64,000 nt of DNA from an uncultured Microbacterium sp. (GTDB lineage: Bacteria > Actinomycetota > Actinomycetes > Actinomycetales > Microbacteriaceae). Each line of letters starts with the position of its first letter. Within the stretch, counting starts at the first letter, position 1. The notes under the pieces are model-generated. The model was not told the origin of the DNA. It did no database searches and saw only the letters and a list, made by a program, of their open reading frames with translations. Shown here piece after piece: positions 24,763 through 31,282 of the stretch. The stretch lies in assembly GCF_913774845.1 (NCBI RefSeq), contig NZ_CAJYJO010000055.1; one strand, 5' to 3'. A program made the translations under genes and the position numbers.

Positions 24763-25359
24763 TCAGAGCTGGGCGAGCACGTTCAGGCGCAGCTGCGCGA
24801 GCACCGCCACCACGACGAACGCGGCGAGCGTCATGAGCGGAACCCACGACATCAGGCGGTCGGCGATCTCCCGCACGCGCCGGCCCGGCAGAACGCCCTC
24901 GCGCAGCACGTGCAGCGTCACGACGAAGAACGAGGGGATGACCACCGACCACGTCACCATGCACCAGGGGCAGAGCGTCGCGAGCACGTACAGGCTCTGC
25001 GCGATCAGCCAGATGACGAATCCGAGCGCGAAGGCGAAGCCGACCCAGAAGAGCGCCCAGAACCACCGCGCGAAACGGGCTCCGGCGAGCAGCGCCATGC
25101 CGACCACGATGGGCGCGATCCACGCCGCGAGACCGATGATCGGGTTGGGGAAACCGAAGACGCTGCCCTGCGCCGACTGCAGGTTCGCCGAGCACTGCAC
25201 CAGCACGCTGAAGTCGCAGGATGCCGCCGCATCGGGGTTCGCGAGCTGGTGGAAGCGCTCCATGGTCAGCGAGAAAGCGGCCCACCATCCGACGACCCCC
25301 GCGAAGATCAGCCAGACGGCGACGACGACGGGGCGGCGCGGGGCGACTGTTTCGCTCAT
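24763..25359 (-). CDS. Vitamin K epoxide reductase family protein (bacterial VKOR, DsbB analogue)
   Basis: SCDFSVLVQC, FGFPNP and the CPWC redox motif; multiple transmembrane helices. Confidence 0.93.
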   Translation of the reverse strand: MSETVAPRRPVVVAVWLIFAGVVGWWAAFSLTMERFHQLANPDAAASCDFSVLVQCSANLQSAQGSVFGFPNPIIGLAAWIAPIVVGMALLAGARFARWFWALFWVGFAFALGFVIWLIAQSLYVLATLCPWCMVTWSVVIPSFFVVTLHVLREGVLPGRRVREIADRLMSWVPLMTLAAFVVVAVLAQLRLNVLAQL

Positions 25360-25463: not shown

Positions 25464-26990
25464 TCACTCGCGGGTCGTGTAGATGCTGTGGTCCAGAACC
25501 TCGCCGGTGAAGACGTCGAGCCCGGGTGGGGGACCTCCGTGCGTCTCGGCGTATTGCTTTTCCCATGCGGCGACTGAGTCGGCGTATGCCTGATTGTTGT
25601 GCGCTGCGAGGGGGCTGAGAGATCCCTGCATCACAACGCGGGTGACGTTGGGCGCCGTCGCGTCGTACACGTTGCCATCGAGCGCCGGCACGATATCGGT
25701 GACGTGCTGGAACGCATACACCGGAACGCGCGACGGGATGACAAAGGAGTCTATGGGGGAGCCGTTCGTCACGACGCCGACCGTGTTGTACGGGAATGCG
25801 GGATCGGCCGCGAGATTCGCTGCCATGATTCCTCCCTGGCTGAATCCCGTCAGCACGACATCGCCTCCAGGCGGGATTCCGGCGTCGTTCATCGCTTCCA
25901 GAACAGCCCGCTCGTAGGCGGTACGAAGAAGAGGATTGTCGGCCATGAGGGCGACGTTCGAGTCGCGATCATTGAGGGCACCGCTATCAGAACTCCACTG
26001 CCAATCCTGGGTGGACGGCAACGAAACAACCCATCGCTCGACTCCGTCCGCGCCTCGAATTTTCTTCACGTCGATCACGGTCGCATCGGCGGTGCCCATG
26101 GCGTCCGTCGTGCCGTTCACCGAGACAAGATCAGAAAGCGACGACAGATGAGTGACCTTTTGAGACTCATCCCAAGCCAATCGTTCGTCGCCATGTAACG
26201 CGTGTGGATCAAGCTCCTCTACATCGGTCGAGTCCTGCAGAAAATTCTGGGCGGCGCCGCCGAGCACCAGACCCACTCCGACTCCGACGGGCCCGAAGGG
26301 TGCGGTTATGAGGGCGTTCGCCATGGGCAGGATGTGGGCAACGATCCGTCGGAGTTCGCCAAGCCCCTCATCAACGATGGGAAGAAGTCTCTGCAGCAGG
26401 GAATCGAGGGCGAACAGCGCCTCGACCAAGTCGGTTACGAGACGCCCCGTCGCGTCGATGAGGTCGTACGCGCCTCGCGCGAAATCCTCCACACGCTCCG
26501 AGATGACGAAGGGATTGACCGCGAACGAGAAGAGCTCGTCCGCGAACTTCGCCAACTGAATGAGCGCGTCACAGACATAGGAACGGGTTGCGTCGACGAG
26601 TCTCGAGGCAAGGCGAAGGGCCGCTGCGGCCGCAGAAGTCCATTCAGAGGCGTCGAGCGCGATACGTTGCAGGTCCTCGTGTCGCTCGCGCAGCGCACGA
26701 ACTGTGCGCCCGTCCAGTTCATCGAGAGACGATCGTGCCTGCTGGACAATATCCGGGATCCCGATGAGCAAGCGCGAGGCGTCTTCCCATGTCGCGGCGA
26801 CGGAAGCCGTCGCGACCGGGTCGCCAGCCAACGCGTCGAACCATTCGCGCAATGGTTCAATGAACTGAAGGACGACGCCGGCAATGCTGGGAATCTGGGC
26901 GCAGTAGTCGCTGCCGGGACCGTTCGTGGGAACACCGCGGGTCCAGCTGCCGCCAGCGAGCTCCGCGCTGATCGCGGATGCCGTGGTCAT
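25464..26990 (-). CDS. Putative type VII secretion substrate: helical N-terminal domain plus C-terminal alpha/beta hydrolase (lipase-like)
   Basis: N-terminal PLREWFDALAGDP...AATW helical region; nucleophile elbow VVLTGFSQGG, candidate Asp in HVTDIVP and His in AAHNN; sits among WXG100-like genes. Confidence 0.7.
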   Translation of the reverse strand: MTTASAISAELAGGSWTRGVPTNGPGSDYCAQIPSIAGVVLQFIEPLREWFDALAGDPVATASVAATWEDASRLLIGIPDIVQQARSSLDELDGRTVRALRERHEDLQRIALDASEWTSAAAAALRLASRLVDATRSYVCDALIQLAKFADELFSFAVNPFVISERVEDFARGAYDLIDATGRLVTDLVEALFALDSLLQRLLPIVDEGLGELRRIVAHILPMANALITAPFGPVGVGVGLVLGGAAQNFLQDSTDVEELDPHALHGDERLAWDESQKVTHLSSLSDLVSVNGTTDAMGTADATVIDVKKIRGADGVERWVVSLPSTQDWQWSSDSGALNDRDSNVALMADNPLLRTAYERAVLEAMNDAGIPPGGDVVLTGFSQGGIMAANLAADPAFPYNTVGVVTNGSPIDSFVIPSRVPVYAFQHVTDIVPALDGNVYDATAPNVTRVVMQGSLSPLAAHNNQAYADSVAAWEKQYAETHGGPPPGLDVFTGEVLDHSIYTTRE

Positions 26991-27304
26991 GAGTCGCTCC
27001 GGGCGAAAGCGTCGACGGCGTCCTGTTCAACACTGGAGAAGGCGGTCGCGGCGTCATCTACTCCATCCGCCACTCGATCGGCGAGATCGCGGGCGGATGA
27101 CAACAGATCCCGGGCTCGCGCCGCGAGAGCAGTGGCCAGGGGAACGACGAGGCCTTGGCTCAGAGGTCCGAAAGCATCGCCTGCGAGATCAGCGCGGATG
27201 CCATCACCGGCGGTGCCGAACACCGACGAGGCTTCTCGCATGAGAACGGCCTGCTTCCGGAGAATTCCACCGTCGATTTCTATGTGCTGATTCGCAGCGG
27301 TCAT
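26987..27304 (-). CDS. Small WXG100-like/EspC-like helical protein
   Basis: 105 aa, two long amphipathic helices around a central DAFG turn, C-terminal FxxxE-like FSSVEQD; coupled to the effector gene. Confidence 0.6.
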   Translation of the reverse strand: MTAANQHIEIDGGILRKQAVLMREASSVFGTAGDGIRADLAGDAFGPLSQGLVVPLATALAARARDLLSSARDLADRVADGVDDAATAFSSVEQDAVDAFARSDS

Positions 27305-27747
27305 CGTCCAGCTTCCTCCGCGATCTTCCTCGCTTCGTCCATCGTGATGCTTCCGTCTCCTCTCGGACTAGCACCCAAGGCCGTCAAAGTCGGCTCAACG
27401 TCGAGCAGGTCGCTGTCTGCATCTCTCAGACTGACGTCGACATAGGACATCGGAAGTGACCGGCTTTCGAGAGCTACCCCAAGAATCTCCGCGACAAGCT
27501 CGGGGGCTACTTCGCTGCTGGGCTGCTGAACCGCATTCAGCGTCCCCCCGATCGACAGCGTCTCCGTGAACCCACTGAGTCTGACGTCAGCCCAGGCATC
27601 CGTGATCCCGAGATCCGCCGCCTCCAGCGCAGCCGGAATCTCCGTCTTGTACGAGTCATCGTGGAACGGCATCTGACTGCAGCCCGAGGCGACGCTCGCG
27701 ACGAGGGCGATGCCGAACAGGACGGCGAGACGGCTACGCCGGATCAT
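27301..27747 (-). CDS. Lipoprotein, candidate immunity protein
   Basis: Signal peptide MIRRSRLAVLFGIALVASVASG|C with a lipobox; lies inside the WXG100-like operon. Confidence 0.65.
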   Translation of the reverse strand: MIRRSRLAVLFGIALVASVASGCSQMPFHDDSYKTEIPAALEAADLGITDAWADVRLSGFTETLSIGGTLNAVQQPSSEVAPELVAEILGVALESRSLPMSYVDVSLRDADSDLLDVEPTLTALGASPRGDGSITMDEARKIAEEAGR

Positions 27748-28043
27748 GCCGTCGCCCCGAGTCCGCGAGCCCCCGCAAGGTCGGCCTCGCTGTACGCCGT
27801 GGCGAGGTCGTCGAGCGCTCCGCTCAACCGCCGCAGCAGAGCGGTCCGGCTCACCAACCGTTCGCCGAACTGCACCTGAGCACGTGCGTAAGCCTGCTGA
27901 GCCTCGCCGCTCCGCTGCGTGCTGAGTGTCGCGGCCTCGCGCGTGAGGGTCTCGACGAGCGCGTCGATCTGCGCGCCGGCCGCCTTGATGCTCGCCGCCG
28001 TCGTCGACAATCGGAGCGGCGTGACTTCGAGGTGCTCGATCAT
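27744..28043 (-). CDS. WXG100 family protein with degenerate motif (RSG instead of WxG)
   Basis: 99 aa, central TQRSGEAQQAY, C-terminal YSEAD matching YxxxD/E. Confidence 0.75.
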   Translation of the reverse strand: MIEHLEVTPLRLSTTAASIKAAGAQIDALVETLTREAATLSTQRSGEAQQAYARAQVQFGERLVSRTALLRRLSGALDDLATAYSEADLAGARGLGATA

Positions 28044-28447
28044 CAGCCGACCGTTCCCGTCGTCGGGCTCACGTACTCGTCGTCGATCCGACGACGTGTC
28101 GATACGACCAGCGGCGATGACGCACCCAGGCTTTCCGCCATGCGCCGAAGCGCTGTGTCAGCGGCATCCCGCTGCGCCTGCCGCACGGTGTCGGTCACGA
28201 TGCGTGACAGCGTCGCCGCGTCGAGACCCGAGGCGCTCCGAGAGATGTCGACGCGGTCGACGCGACCACTGGCGCTCGCCGAGACGCGCACTTCACGACC
28301 GACCGATGCTCGGGTCGCCGTGGCCGTTCGTGTGTCGTCGGCCATGCGTGCGGCGTCGTGCGCCAGCGTTCGTGCCTGCGCGGTCTGGGCCTGCACGTGT
28401 GCGCGTGCCTGCTCGAAAGCGGTGAGCGAGTCGTCGGACAGAGTCAT
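28043..28447 (-). CDS. YbaB/EbfC-like protein of the kind found upstream of actinobacterial WXG100 clusters
   Basis: VRVSASASGRVDRVDI...LSRIVTDTVRQAQ pattern; ATG at 28447 after an AAAGGAG RBS; overlaps the WXG100 start. Confidence 0.6.
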   Translation of the reverse strand: MTLSDDSLTAFEQARAHVQAQTAQARTLAHDAARMADDTRTATATRASVGREVRVSASASGRVDRVDISRSASGLDAATLSRIVTDTVRQAQRDAADTALRRMAESLGASSPLVVSTRRRIDDEYVSPTTGTVG

Positions 28448-28506
28448 GGGGCTCCTTTCGCCGGAATTTCGACCGTACCCAAGCCCGTCTCGGGGGCGGA
28501 GGCGCC

Positions 28507-28515
28507 TGTGGATAA
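28507..28515 (-). promoter_or_regulatory. Perfect DnaA box
   Basis: TGTGGATAA on + equals TTATCCACA on -, the consensus DnaA box, about 60 bp upstream of the YbaB-like gene. Confidence 0.4.
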
Positions 28516-28750
28516 CCGGTTCCGCGAGCGGCGCCGTGGGCGTTCGCGCCGGTCCGTGCGATAATCGAAGCTGATGTGACCGCGGCCGCGCCGCAGGAAC
28601 ATCACCAGAAGACTTCGGGCGATGACCGCCCTTCGCAGACCGAGCCGCAGGCCGACTGCAGACCGAGTGAGTTCGCGGCCCCGCCGGGTGCGGCGCCGCA
28701 TGAGATTTCGTCGGGCGACGCGCGGTGTCGCCCGCCAGGGAGTACGCCGA

Positions 28751-31282
28751 ATGGCCGAGAAGAACGACGATCAGACCCCCACCGACGAGACGGTGATCGA
28801 GACGCCCGCTCCCGAGACCGACGAGCAAGCCGCTCCCGACGCCGACACGGTCGCCCCGGCCGAAGAGGACGAGGCCGCGGTCCAGGATGCCGAGCAGGCC
28901 GCCGCCGCCGACACCGAGGCGCCCGCGGTGCTCGATGAGCCCGACGTCGAGGCTGCGGCATCCGTCCCCGACGTCCCGGCCGAAGACGCCGAGGCCGCCT
29001 CGGTCGACGCTCAGCCGGAGCCCGAGGCGCCCGCCGAAGCCGAGCCCCCCATCGAGGCCGAGGCCTCCAACCAGCCCGAGACCCCCACCGAACCCGAGGC
29101 GCCCGCCGAGCCGGAGAAGCCGGCGCGACCCACCGCGGTCTCGCTCGGTCTGCTCCCCGAGAACTTCGTCTCCGCGGTCTCGACCGCTCTGCACTTCTAC
29201 GCCCCCGAGCTGCCGCCGCTGCCCGCGCGCGACGACGCCTGGGACCGTGACGACCGCGACGACGACGGGCCGAACGAGCGCGTCTCCGCGAACGCCCGCC
29301 GCCGCAACCGTCGCCGCGGCGGTGCGTCCGGGGGAGACGAGGCTGCCGAGCCGTCGACCGCTCCGGTCCGTCAGCGCGCTGTCGAGGTCATCACCGAGCC
29401 GCAGCGCATCAAGGGCTCCACCCGGCTCGAGGCGAAGAAGCAGCGTCGGCGCGACGGACGCGAGGCCGGCCGTCGCCGTCCCGTGGTGACCGAGGCGGAG
29501 TTCCTCGCCCGCCGCGAAGCGGTCGACCGTGTCATGGTCGTGCGCTCGAAGGCCGGTCGCATCCAGATCGCCGTCCTCGAGGACAACGTGCTCGTCGAGC
29601 ACTACGTCGCCCGCAACCAGGACGCCTCGCTCATCGGCAACGTCTATCTCGGACGCGTGCAGAACGTGCTGCCCAGCATGGAGGCCGCGTTCGTCGACAT
29701 CGGTCGAGGCCGCAACGCCGTGCTCTACTCGGGCGAGGTCGACTGGGACGGCGTCGAGACCAACAACCAGCCGCGCCGGATCGAGCTCGCCCTCAAGTCG
29801 GGCGACCGCGTGCTCGTACAGGTCACGAAAGACCCCGTGGGGCACAAGGGCGCGCGCCTGACGAGCCAGATCTCGCTGCCCGGCCGCTACCTCGTGTACG
29901 TGCCCAACGGCACGATGAACGGCATCTCGCGCAAGCTCCCCGACACCGAACGCGCGCGCCTGAAGAAGATCCTCAAAGAGGTCCTGCCCGAGTCCTCCGG
30001 CGTCATCGTCCGGACCGCGGCCGAGGGCGCGACCGAGGAGCAGCTGACCCTCGACGTGCAGCGCCTCACCTCGCAGTGGGAGCACGTCTCCAGCCAGGTC
30101 AAGACGATCCAGGCACCCGCCTTGCTGCACTCCGAGCCCGACCTGCTGGTCAAGATCGTGCGCGACGTCTTCAACGAGGACTTCACGCGCATGCTCATCC
30201 AGGGCGACGAGGCGCTGCAGACGATCTCGAACTACCTCAAGGGCGTCGCTCCCGACCTGCTCGAGCGCGTCGAGAAGTACGAGGGCGAGCAGGACCCGTT
30301 CGACGCCTTCCGCGTGACCGAGCAGATCGAGAAGGCGCTCGACCGCAAGGTCTGGCTGCCCTCGGGCGGTTCGCTCGTGATCGACCGCACCGAGGCCATG
30401 ACCGTGGTCGACGTCAACACCGGCAAGTTCGTCGGCTCGGGCGGAAACCTCGAAGAGACCGTCACCAAGAACAACCTCGAGGCCGCCGAGGAGATCGTGC
30501 GGCAGCTGCGCCTGCGCGACATCGGCGGGATCATCGTCGTCGACTTCATCGACATGGTGCTCGAGTCCAACCGCGACCTCGTGCTGCGCCGACTCATCGA
30601 GTGCCTGAGCCGCGACCGGACGAAGCACCAGGTCGCCGAGGTCACCTCGCTCGGACTCGTGCAGATGACCCGCAAGAAGCTGGGTCTGGGTCTGCTGGAG
30701 ACCTTCAGCGAGGCCTGCGAGGTCTGCGCCGGTCGCGGCGTGATCGTCCACCACGATCCCGTCGTCAAGCATCGCCCCACGGGCTCCTCGAACGGCAACG
30801 GCAACCAGGGCTCGTCCAACCGCCGCGGGCGCGGCGGCAACGGGGGATCGAACGGCAGCGGCAACGCTCAGGCGGGTGCGACCTCGCAGAGCGCCTCGGG
30901 CGCCGCCGCGGCCCAGGCCGGCGGCACGCACGTCATCACCGAGGGCGTGAAGTCCGCGCTCGCCCAGATCGCGGCATCCACCGTCAAGCCCACGATCGAC
31001 GACCCCGCCGTCGTCGAGGCGGCGGTCGTCGCGTCCGTGGAGGCCGTCCTCGAAGCCAAGGCCGAGAAGGATGCCGAGACCCCGGCGCCCGTGCGCGAGA
31101 AGCGCCCCCGCAAGAAGCGCGAACCGAAGGCTCCGCGCACCGAGAAGGACGCGCTGTTGGAGTCGGTGCTCGAAGCCCTGCCCGAGCCCAAGGCTCCGGG
31201 GCAGGGACGCTCGCGCCGCCGCGTGACCACGGCAGCCCTCACCGGTACGCCCGTCGACGCGCAGCCGGTCACCGAGTCCTGA
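28751..31282 (+). CDS. rne: Ribonuclease E/G family
   Basis: S1 domain GNVYLGRVQNVLPSMEAAFVDIG, VDVNTG, GGIIVVDFIDM, CxxC zinc link; acidic disordered N-terminus. Confidence 0.95.
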   Translation: MAEKNDDQTPTDETVIETPAPETDEQAAPDADTVAPAEEDEAAVQDAEQAAAADTEAPAVLDEPDVEAAASVPDVPAEDAEAASVDAQPEPEAPAEAEPPIEAEASNQPETPTEPEAPAEPEKPARPTAVSLGLLPENFVSAVSTALHFYAPELPPLPARDDAWDRDDRDDDGPNERVSANARRRNRRRGGASGGDEAAEPSTAPVRQRAVEVITEPQRIKGSTRLEAKKQRRRDGREAGRRRPVVTEAEFLARREAVDRVMVVRSKAGRIQIAVLEDNVLVEHYVARNQDASLIGNVYLGRVQNVLPSMEAAFVDIGRGRNAVLYSGEVDWDGVETNNQPRRIELALKSGDRVLVQVTKDPVGHKGARLTSQISLPGRYLVYVPNGTMNGISRKLPDTERARLKKILKEVLPESSGVIVRTAAEGATEEQLTLDVQRLTSQWEHVSSQVKTIQAPALLHSEPDLLVKIVRDVFNEDFTRMLIQGDEALQTISNYLKGVAPDLLERVEKYEGEQDPFDAFRVTEQIEKALDRKVWLPSGGSLVIDRTEAMTVVDVNTGKFVGSGGNLEETVTKNNLEAAEEIVRQLRLRDIGGIIVVDFIDMVLESNRDLVLRRLIECLSRDRTKHQVAEVTSLGLVQMTRKKLGLGLLETFSEACEVCAGRGVIVHHDPVVKHRPTGSSNGNGNQGSSNRRGRGGNGGSNGSGNAQAGATSQSASGAAAAQAGGTHVITEGVKSALAQIAASTVKPTIDDPAVVEAAVVASVEAVLEAKAEKDAETPAPVREKRPRKKREPKAPRTEKDALLESVLEALPEPKAPGQGRSRRRVTTAALTGTPVDAQPVTES

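Follow-up and report, generated by a model that had tools for sequence, protein, structure and literature searches.

A five-gene cassette in Microbacterium that probably encodes a type VII-exported hydrolase toxin with helical partners and a lipoprotein immunity protein

The window studied here is a stretch of 64,000 nucleotides of high-GC actinobacterial DNA from an uncultured Microbacterium, and we describe a cassette of five genes, g1 to g5, which occupies positions 25464-28447 between vkor and rne. We consider it probable that the cassette encodes an envelope-acting hydrolase toxin exported by a secretion system of type VII (T7SS), of the T7SSa kind, together with Tap-like partners, an EspL-like chaperone and a lipoprotein that gives immunity. 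An initial annotation, made from the sequence of the window, had proposed an effector-immunity module, and comparative data now back that reading: the lipoprotein co-occurs with the hydrolase and tracks its family, the cassette is an accessory and fast-diverging island, and the N-terminal domain of the large protein is shared with an ADP-ribosyltransferase toxin.

A cassette of five coupled genes

The five genes all lie on one strand.

28043-28447, minus strand: g1, 134 aa, YbaB/EbfC-fold protein, its ATG at 28447 behind GGAG
27744-28043, minus strand: g2, 99 aa, WXG100 protein
27301-27747, minus strand: g3, 148 aa, lipoprotein
26987-27304, minus strand: g4, 105 aa, EspC/PE/Tap-like helical hairpin
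25464-26990, minus strand: g5, 508 aa, helical N-domain and C-terminal alpha/beta hydrolase

The overlapping minus-strand genes of the initial annotation are thus all present, in the order given there. The overlap is 1 nt between g1 and g2 (TGATG) and 4 nt (ATGA) at each of g2/g3, g3/g4 and g4/g5; the genes are translationally coupled and all frames are intact. The identical five-gene order is found in at least six other Microbacterium records, and since the same genes recur in the same order the arrangement is not a matter of chance.

The large protein joins a helical domain to a hydrolase

The protein encoded by g5 is divided into the following parts.

26226-26990, minus strand: N-terminal region, aa 1-255, a long-helix bundle and proposed T7SS targeting domain
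26256-26315, minus strand: glycine-rich hydrophobic segment, aa 226-245 (GPVGVGVGLVLGGAA), between the two domains
25467-26225, minus strand: C-terminal alpha/beta-hydrolase domain, aa 256-508, where the AlphaFold predicted local distance difference test score (pLDDT) is about 90 or more
25839-25841 (Ser384), 25695-25697 (Asp432) and 25599-25601 (His464), minus strand: codons of invariant residues

The AlphaFold model of the whole protein, built with 50 homologues, has a pLDDT of 77.8 and places helices at residues 95-154, 160-228 and 230-251, followed by an alpha/beta domain from about residue 256. S384, D432, D438 and H464 are unchanged in all 50 homologues, and S384 sits within a nucleophile elbow, GFSQGG. 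With this elbow, the conserved Ser-Asp-His and the fold, the C-terminal domain has the marks of an alpha/beta hydrolase. All top Foldseek matches in the PDB are alpha/beta hydrolases (feruloyl esterase, class 3 lipases, cutinases/PETases and a capsule O-acetyltransferase; E 0.013-0.2), so the fold class is clear while the substrate is not. At threshold the domain falls into no specific Pfam family; sub-threshold matches lie around GFSQGG. PDB sequence searches with g1, g2, g3 and g5, and with the g4 and g5 profiles, gave no significant match.

Searching 1.84 billion representatives with the C-terminal domain returned 2386 clusters at E up to 0.001, and in nearly all of them it forms the C-terminal part of a 450-600-aa protein. 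Among 70 sampled relatives, nine carry an N-terminal T7SS_signal domain (PF21725) and 20 have weak PGAP1-like lipase matches. The locus thereby points to a hydrolase family that is large (about 2,400 sequence clusters) and uncurated, and whose members are mostly fused to secretion-type N-domains.

The N-domain of g5 has the invariant residues L54-x-G56 and W68, and WXG100_2 is touched by two of the 50 family members (best E 3.3e-6). Its homology is clear (hhalign probability 99.1%, E 4e-19) with the N-domain of a second protein of the same genome, encoded on C50, which ends in the ADP-ribosyltransferase exotoxin domain PF03496 (28.6 bits against a cut-off of 23.4). One N-domain with swapped payloads, and one payload on two N-domains, is the hallmark of polymorphic effectors.

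No N-terminal hydrophobic signal sequence is seen in g5, and the segment 226-245 is its sole hydrophobic window. This segment is partly conserved in the family and could be a membrane-insertion or a linker element.

The same hydrolase domain is also found in proteins of about 645 aa that have an N-terminal transmembrane helix and occur in many genera of Microbacteriaceae (L039, L041, L043, L045, L047, L048, L049). These membrane-anchored hydrolases may be a housekeeping branch ancestral to the secreted versions.

The lipoprotein follows the hydrolase

The g3 protein has a signal peptide with a hydrophobic segment at 5-26 and the lipobox VASG|C23, and it matches no curated family in Pfam or NCBIfam. 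The genus and family sets used here are samples, and absence means not found in the genomes searched. Homologues of g3 are present in 8 of 120 congeners, all eight of which also carry g5; no orphan homologue away from g5 was found among the 120. Every copy adjoins a partner-toxin pair, lying upstream of the partner gene in some cases and immediately downstream of the toxin in others, and in one congener (G264) g3 is tandemly duplicated.

Further, a full-length alignment is obtained between the g3 profile and two other lipoproteins, one from the paralogous hydrolase cassette (E 3e-5) and one from the cassette of a 41%-identical orthologue (E 2e-4). Where a cassette has another C-domain, only the signal peptide is common to its lipoprotein and g3, and this includes one cassette with the same type of N-domain. 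Because the homology is limited to the lipoproteins of hydrolase cassettes, g3 tracks the payload and not the N-domain. Such tracking is expected of an immunity or inhibitor protein, the role that we propose for g3 from these comparisons. It is also the fastest-diverging gene of the cassette, and its small family makes a candidate specific inhibitor of the g5-type hydrolase.

Two small helical partners

The g2 protein scores above the Pfam threshold for WXG100 (PF06013; 36.8 bits against 27.3) and below the cut-off of NCBIfam TIGR03930 (39.8 against 44.85). It is 38% identical to one WXG100 protein of the secretion core cluster on C33, and near its C-terminus it carries the export motif Y84-x-x-x-D88; YxxxD is retained in seven of nine aligned homologues.

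The g4 protein itself has no direct Pfam match, and EspC (PF10824) is matched by 4 of 16 relatives (best E 6.4e-6). Its AlphaFold model, from an 18-sequence alignment, is a helix-loop-helix hairpin with helices at 12-35 and 53-104 (pLDDT 82.8). The loop holds a conserved L-x-G-D-A-F-G and the C-terminus carries F100-x-x-x-D104. EsxA, EsxB, EsxOP and PE25 make up nearly all of the top Foldseek list against the PDB, with template modelling (TM) scores up to 0.71-0.73, all at E of 1 or more. Aligned by hhalign, the g4 and g2 families are collinear at a level that is not significant (E 0.013, probability 3%). That the small proteins are WXG100-type hairpins, as first annotated, is borne out for g2 by Pfam and for g4 by the predicted hairpin with EsxA, EsxB and PE25 as nearest neighbours. 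Every g5-type gene is preceded by a small gene homologous to g4, and across genera the cassette genes always accompany a YxxxD-bearing WXG100 gene and an EspC/PE-like hairpin gene.

The W-x-G turn of g2 is absent in this strain, where it reads R44-S-G. Codon 44 (27912-27914, minus strand) is CGG; it is TGG (W-S-G) in the 98%-identical cassettes of two records, and tryptophan stands at this position in all eight other aligned homologues. The arginine may be a sequencing error; if it is real, it may mean loss of function or be a variant that is tolerated. One could ask whether the cassette is of the proposed kind and is disabled or decaying in this strain through the loss of the tryptophan, and the codon comparison is what speaks for it. 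However, the five frames are intact and translationally coupled, a single substitution is all that is seen, and some functional T7SS partners lack a canonical WxG, the g4 family itself having LxG/AFG. We give a decayed cassette only a slender chance.

A YbaB-fold gene as companion

The g1 protein belongs to the Pfam family YbaB_DNA_bd (PF02575; 37.5 bits against a cut-off of 25.5) and scores 15 bits on the YbaB equivalog TIGR00103, which has a cut-off of 49.45. Its context is a T7SS-type cassette instead of dnaX-recR. We therefore describe g1 as EspL-like, since it has the YbaB fold family without YbaB orthology and without the dnaX-recR context.

All five above-cut-off YbaB matches of this genome (G000) lie inside cassettes with a gene for a g5-type N-domain, and no canonical above-threshold YbaB was seen in the genome outside T7SS-type cassettes. 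In genomes of five other genera of Microbacteriaceae (G078, G112, G143, G168 and G189), eight of nine above-cut-off matches are within about 1.5 kb of such a gene. Given these counts, the YbaB-fold gene is a near-constant companion of the g5 N-domain family.

YbaB-fold EspL, EspH and EspD are candidate chaperones of ESX-1 in mycobacteria (reviewed in PMC6109436). By analogy we propose that g1 is a cytosolic chaperone or adaptor, and the pairing of YbaB fold and N-domain fits the chaperone idea for these three proteins, as well as the occurrence of YbaB/EspL-like genes in ESX-4-linked operons of M. abscessus (PMC13491425). A companion that is close to obligatory could explain what EspL-like proteins do.

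The secretion core lies elsewhere in the genome

There is no T7SS core within the window, which lies on C55; the core is on C33, and the cassette is for this reason an orphan. The first annotation had noted that no EccC/FtsK ATPase is in the window and had suggested looking for eccC in the genome; the genome's only EccC is on C33 (TIGR03924, 803 bits), in a core with EccB (PF05108, 192 bits), EccD (C33:26828-28093; TIGR03920, 100 bits, above cut-off) and a neighbouring subtilase that fits mycosin. This cluster also holds two WXG100 (Esx) pairs and is, from its gene content, an ESX-4-like minimal T7SSa. Neither of the findings that would have told against the first annotation, a genome devoid of a T7SS core and small proteins without the WXG100-type hairpin, was thus made. 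Another EccD candidate, an open reading frame (ORF) at L017:11620-13077, is a spurious Arg-rich frame.

Searches with tblastn and ORF maps reveal at least seven further cassettes of T7SS-substrate type in the genome.

C55, about 133-135.5 kb (L018:4048-7459): small partner, g5 paralogue (39-44% identical), YbaB and lipoprotein, adjoining tRNA-Met
C50 (L021:3885-6060): YbaB, small partner and the ADP-ribosyltransferase toxin
C49 (L020:4001-6948): small partner, 438-aa protein, lipoprotein, YbaB and WXG100
C14 (L019:4699-6648): YbaB, small partner and 477-aa protein, beside a phage-type integrase
C19 (L022:4346-5200): N-domain gene truncated by an IS3-type element
C3 (L025:683-4110): small partner, protein with PF21725 and Abhydrolase_8, lipoprotein and WXG100, adjoining tRNA-Met
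C2 (L023:5075-7354): PF21725 protein, 159-aa gene and WXG100

Distribution and evolution of the cassette

Full-length homologues of g5 are present in 12 of the 120 sampled congeners. In three congeners without g5 the order is ndk-vkor-rne with nothing in between, which is an empty site, and the cassette is an accessory island. Its GC is 0.64, against 0.71 in the remaining window. The flanking genes are as follows.

24763-25359, minus strand: VKOR, downstream flank, PF07884 in orthologous loci
28622-31282, plus strand: RNase E (rne), upstream flank, divergent from the cassette

Seven of the 12 congeneric cassettes occupy this same chromosomal site, in three arrangements.

Arrangement 1: rne / YbaB-WXG-lipoprotein-partner-toxin-VKOR / ndk
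Arrangement 2: rne-VKOR-YbaB-WXG-lipoprotein-partner-toxin-ndk
Arrangement 3: rne-VKOR-YbaB-WXG-partner-toxin-lipoprotein-ndk

More distant homologues at other places have the order partner-toxin-lipoprotein-YbaB-WXG.

The flanks and the homologues place the window in Microbacterium near M. testaceum (strain StLB037: folC 93.5% and ndk 99% identity), whose cassette has the same gene order. Despite the near-identical flanks, g5 is 60%, g4 61% and g3 44% identical to their counterparts in StLB037. A metagenomic relative has more distant flanks (folC 84%), yet its g5 is 74% identical. The divergence of the cassette is thus decoupled from that of its flanks.

Compared with a 98%-identical relative, the ratio of non-synonymous to synonymous substitution rates (dN/dS), from few substitutions, is 0.24-0.64 in the cassette and 0.05-0.13 in the flanks. 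Against the locus at L064:3690-6673 the cassette has dS of 0.01-0.08, below the 0.12-0.28 of rne, folC and ileS in the same genome pair; from these small counts the difference suggests a recent exchange of alleles by recombination.

An apparent g5 frameshift in the congener G211 (L071, G211:C1:643001-657000) was considered as a sign of decay and set aside; folC and rne are split there too, which points to assembly errors. In the present window a 962-aa minus-strand ORF at 28043-30931, which contains g1, is an Arg/Gly-rich antisense frame of rne and an artefact of high GC. It runs in frame into g1, and a gene caller could mis-extend g1 over it.

The pattern of presence and conservation bears on the main rival explanation, in which the exported hydrolase is not a weapon. 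It would instead remodel the cell's own envelope or degrade external polymers or lipids, for nutrition or in plant colonisation, and the lipoprotein would be a regulator, an anchor or a factor of self-protection. Such an enzyme would suit the feruloyl esterase, cutinases and fungal lipases among the best fold neighbours, the plant association of M. testaceum as the closest named relative, the single chromosomal site kept by seven of the 12 congeneric cassettes, the catalytic domain as the most conserved part of the cassette, and the wide occurrence of membrane-anchored relatives of the domain in Microbacteriaceae. However, housekeeping fits poorly with a presence of about 10% among the sampled congeners and with clean empty sites. 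Immunity genes typically behave as this lipoprotein gene does, which is adjacent, co-diverges and occurs twice in one genome; the same N-domain bears an ADP-ribosyltransferase toxin domain in this genome, and dN/dS of the cassette is raised relative to the flanks. We therefore regard a non-weapon enzyme as unlikely, while taking it seriously.

The region upstream of the cassette

Two elements are conserved upstream of g1, and the first of them is also found at other positions.

28507-28519, minus strand: conserved box CCGGTTATCCACA with the core ATCCACAGG, DnaA-box-like (TTATCCACA here)
28472-28477, minus strand: -10-like hexamer TACGGT (TAnnnT), conserved in the upstream alignments of orthologous loci
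L068:4872, L069:8843, L070:8806, L071:8716 and L077:5537: further positions of the box

The box ATCCACAGG is located about 67-69 nt before the start of the YbaB-like gene in 11 orthologous loci, whether rne or vkor is upstream, and about 29 nt upstream of the TAnnnT hexamer. The paralogous cassette has the same 13-mer in front of it, at C55:135545 (minus strand), and there are only 67 T[TAG]TCCACA sites genome-wide. A SigM -35 candidate, GGAACCG (28517-28523, minus strand; 70 nt upstream of g1), is absent from orthologues and paralogues and the heptamer is common in the genome, so that it is probably there by chance. Terminator and sigma-70 scans of the locus gave nothing informative.

An operator-like box in front of a gene that scores as YbaB_DNA_bd brings up another explanation, namely that these proteins are not T7SS substrates: g1 would be a DNA-binding YbaB regulator, g5 would stay in the cytoplasm or insert into the membrane through its one hydrophobic segment, 226-245, with the small helical proteins as structural partners. 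That the N-domain of g5 matches no curated T7SS signal family would also agree with this. Against it, the cassette genes always travel with the YxxxD WXG100 gene and the EspC/PE-like hairpin across genera, and both a complete T7SS and several cassettes of like make-up are encoded in the genome. Since its partner is a lipoprotein, the enzyme would have to reach it outside the membrane, although g5 lacks a signal peptide, and YbaB-fold proteins are documented as ESX chaperone candidates (PMC6109436). We find it highly improbable that the cassette proteins are not secreted in this way.

Proposed mechanism and weight of the evidence

In the favoured explanation, an exported toxin with a lipoprotein antidote, the helical N-domain of g5 would form a bundle in the cytoplasm with g4 and probably with the YxxxD-bearing g2. 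This bundle would make up a composite signal for export, comparable to EatA-TapA1-TapA2 or LXG-Lap1-Lap2, and g1 would stabilise the g5-g4-g2 complex, as is thought for EspL, EspH and EspD with Esp substrates. Recognition of the bundle would fall to the EccC ATPase encoded on C33, and its export to the EccB/C/D-MycP machine. Once outside, the hydrolase would cleave ester bonds in the envelope of neighbours, most likely in a membrane (glyco)lipid, while g3, anchored on the outside of the membrane, would bind and block the hydrolase domain and protect the producer and its kin. We infer the formation of the complex, the dependence on the T7SS, the extracellular lipid or ester target and the inhibition by g3, and we likewise infer that the cassette is toxic to other bacteria.

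Several observations weigh against the exported toxin. The N-domain of g5 has no match to LXG (PF04740) or T7SS_signal (PF21725) at E up to 1, and hhalign against the PF21725 proteins of this genome gives only E 0.14 and 0.28; an assignment of the domain to either family was accordingly rejected. The fold matches of the modelled hydrolase are weak, with a best E of 0.013, and name no substrate, and related membrane-anchored hydrolases are widespread in Microbacteriaceae, which means that the fold is not specific to toxins. The loss of the tryptophan at the WxG of g2 may impair export. Further, the dN/dS figures rest on few substitutions, and a chromosomal site that is the same over much of the genus, together with a catalytic domain that is the best-conserved part, is a pattern that a physiological enzyme would be expected to match too.

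A more specific idea can be put forward tentatively, and we hold it to be rather doubtful as a whole. The N-domain of g5 would represent an uncurated T7SSa targeting family of Microbacteriaceae that needs a dedicated YbaB-fold protein and two hairpins, that is, a four-component pre-secretion complex. It would carry interchangeable payloads (hydrolase, ADP-ribosyltransferase and others), and a conserved DnaA-box-like operator, ATCCACAGG, would control its expression, through which the making of the toxin might be coupled to replication or to the state of growth.

The locus and its paralogues suggest that Microbacteriaceae, which are single-membrane bacteria of soil and plants, use the same T7SS toxin strategy as mycobacteria. 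Since export here would have no mycolic outer membrane to cross, they would offer a simpler system for study.

Comparison with known systems

The first experimental demonstration of actinobacterial T7SS antibacterial toxins dates from 2026 and is for mycobacteria only. The nearest characterised system, the Eat locus of Mycobacterium abscessus, comprises TapA1/TapA2, EatA and the lipoprotein EatI, and is dependent on ESX-4 (Benedict et al., Nat Commun 2026, PMC13444075). In the survey of that study, alpha/beta hydrolases are the commonest payload, lipoproteins are noted among the immunity proteins and loci occur across Actinomycetota. Tap proteins, partners from the WXG100 family, stack into a bundle with the N-domain of the toxin (Lee et al., bioRxiv 10.64898/2026.08.24.746431), and a study of Schaalia describes orphan candidate Esx substrates, each beside a gene for a WXG100-like hairpin (PMC13622651).

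In general there is a close resemblance between Eat and the Microbacterium cassette. Both are orphan operons distant from an ESX-4 core with genes for small WXG100-family partners, and both have an elongated helical N-domain joined to a C-terminal enzyme toxin and a lipoprotein gene, the product of which is the antidote to an envelope-acting toxin in the case of EatI. The likeness to EatA, Tap and EatI is drawn from descriptions and gene layout. The sequence-level features of an Eat-type locus are found here: a predicted toxin with helical N-terminus and C-terminal enzyme and no Sec signal, WXG100-like partners, an adjacent lipoprotein and a T7SSa core. However, a few differences can be observed. 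The payload of EatA is a GH183 arabinanase, while that of g5 is a Ser-Asp-His hydrolase and not a GH183 endo-D-arabinanase, and unlike the host of Eat, Microbacterium has no mycolic outer membrane and no arabinogalactan. There is an extra YbaB-fold gene, and the lipoprotein gene stands before the partner and the toxin in this strain and after the toxin in Eat. As the C-domain of g5 is an alpha/beta hydrolase with GFSQGG, we have the same kind of locus as that of EatA with another protein family. The cassette belongs to the Eat kind, with an unrelated payload, with uncurated families of N-domain, hydrolase and lipoprotein, and with a YbaB-fold component as a fixed part.

Similar in gene content are operons of M. 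abscessus that are related to ESX-4. In the SigM/ESX-4 regulon, the operon Mab_0251-0253 encodes a small helical partner, an alpha/beta hydrolase with a helix bundle and the lipoprotein LppV, and operons of predicted ESX-4 substrates contain YbaB/EbfC EspL-like genes, Mab_2773c and Mab_3666 (PMC13491425). The former has partner, hydrolase and lipoprotein in common with the Microbacterium cassette, and the latter share with it a YbaB/EspL-like gene among genes for predicted ESX-4-type substrates. The M. abscessus operons have a common SigM promoter, whereas the Microbacterium cassette has the conserved box ATCCACAGG instead. The initial annotation had not recognised the arrangement as a characterised one; this no longer holds, as analogous loci were characterised in 2026 (PMC13444075) and YbaB/EspL-like genes are reported in ESX-4-linked operons (PMC13491425).

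A resemblance to the LXG toxins of Bacillota with Lap1/Lap2 can also be seen, in that a composite helical export signal made of the toxin domain and small hairpins is what we propose here. The C-terminal FxxxD of g4 resembles the Lap1 motif. Within the LXG group, TslA-TilA pairs a lipase with a lipoprotein immunity protein, as we propose for the esterase/lipase-type g5 and g3, and TelC-TipC has an immunity protein of the envelope. In contrast, the machine of Microbacterium is T7SSa (EccB/C/D, mycosin) and that of LXG toxins is T7SSb, and g5 has no LXG match in Pfam. Further, the helical domain of g5 is N-terminal, while TslA is the reverse, with an N-terminal lipase and a C-terminal helical targeting domain.

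Finally, g1 has in common with EspL, EspH and EspD a YbaB fold that is encoded beside T7SS substrates and not at dnaX-recR, and all of them are proposed stabilisers of helical substrates. Unlike these three, genes of the g1 type accompany the toxin cassettes of one N-domain family in Microbacteriaceae.

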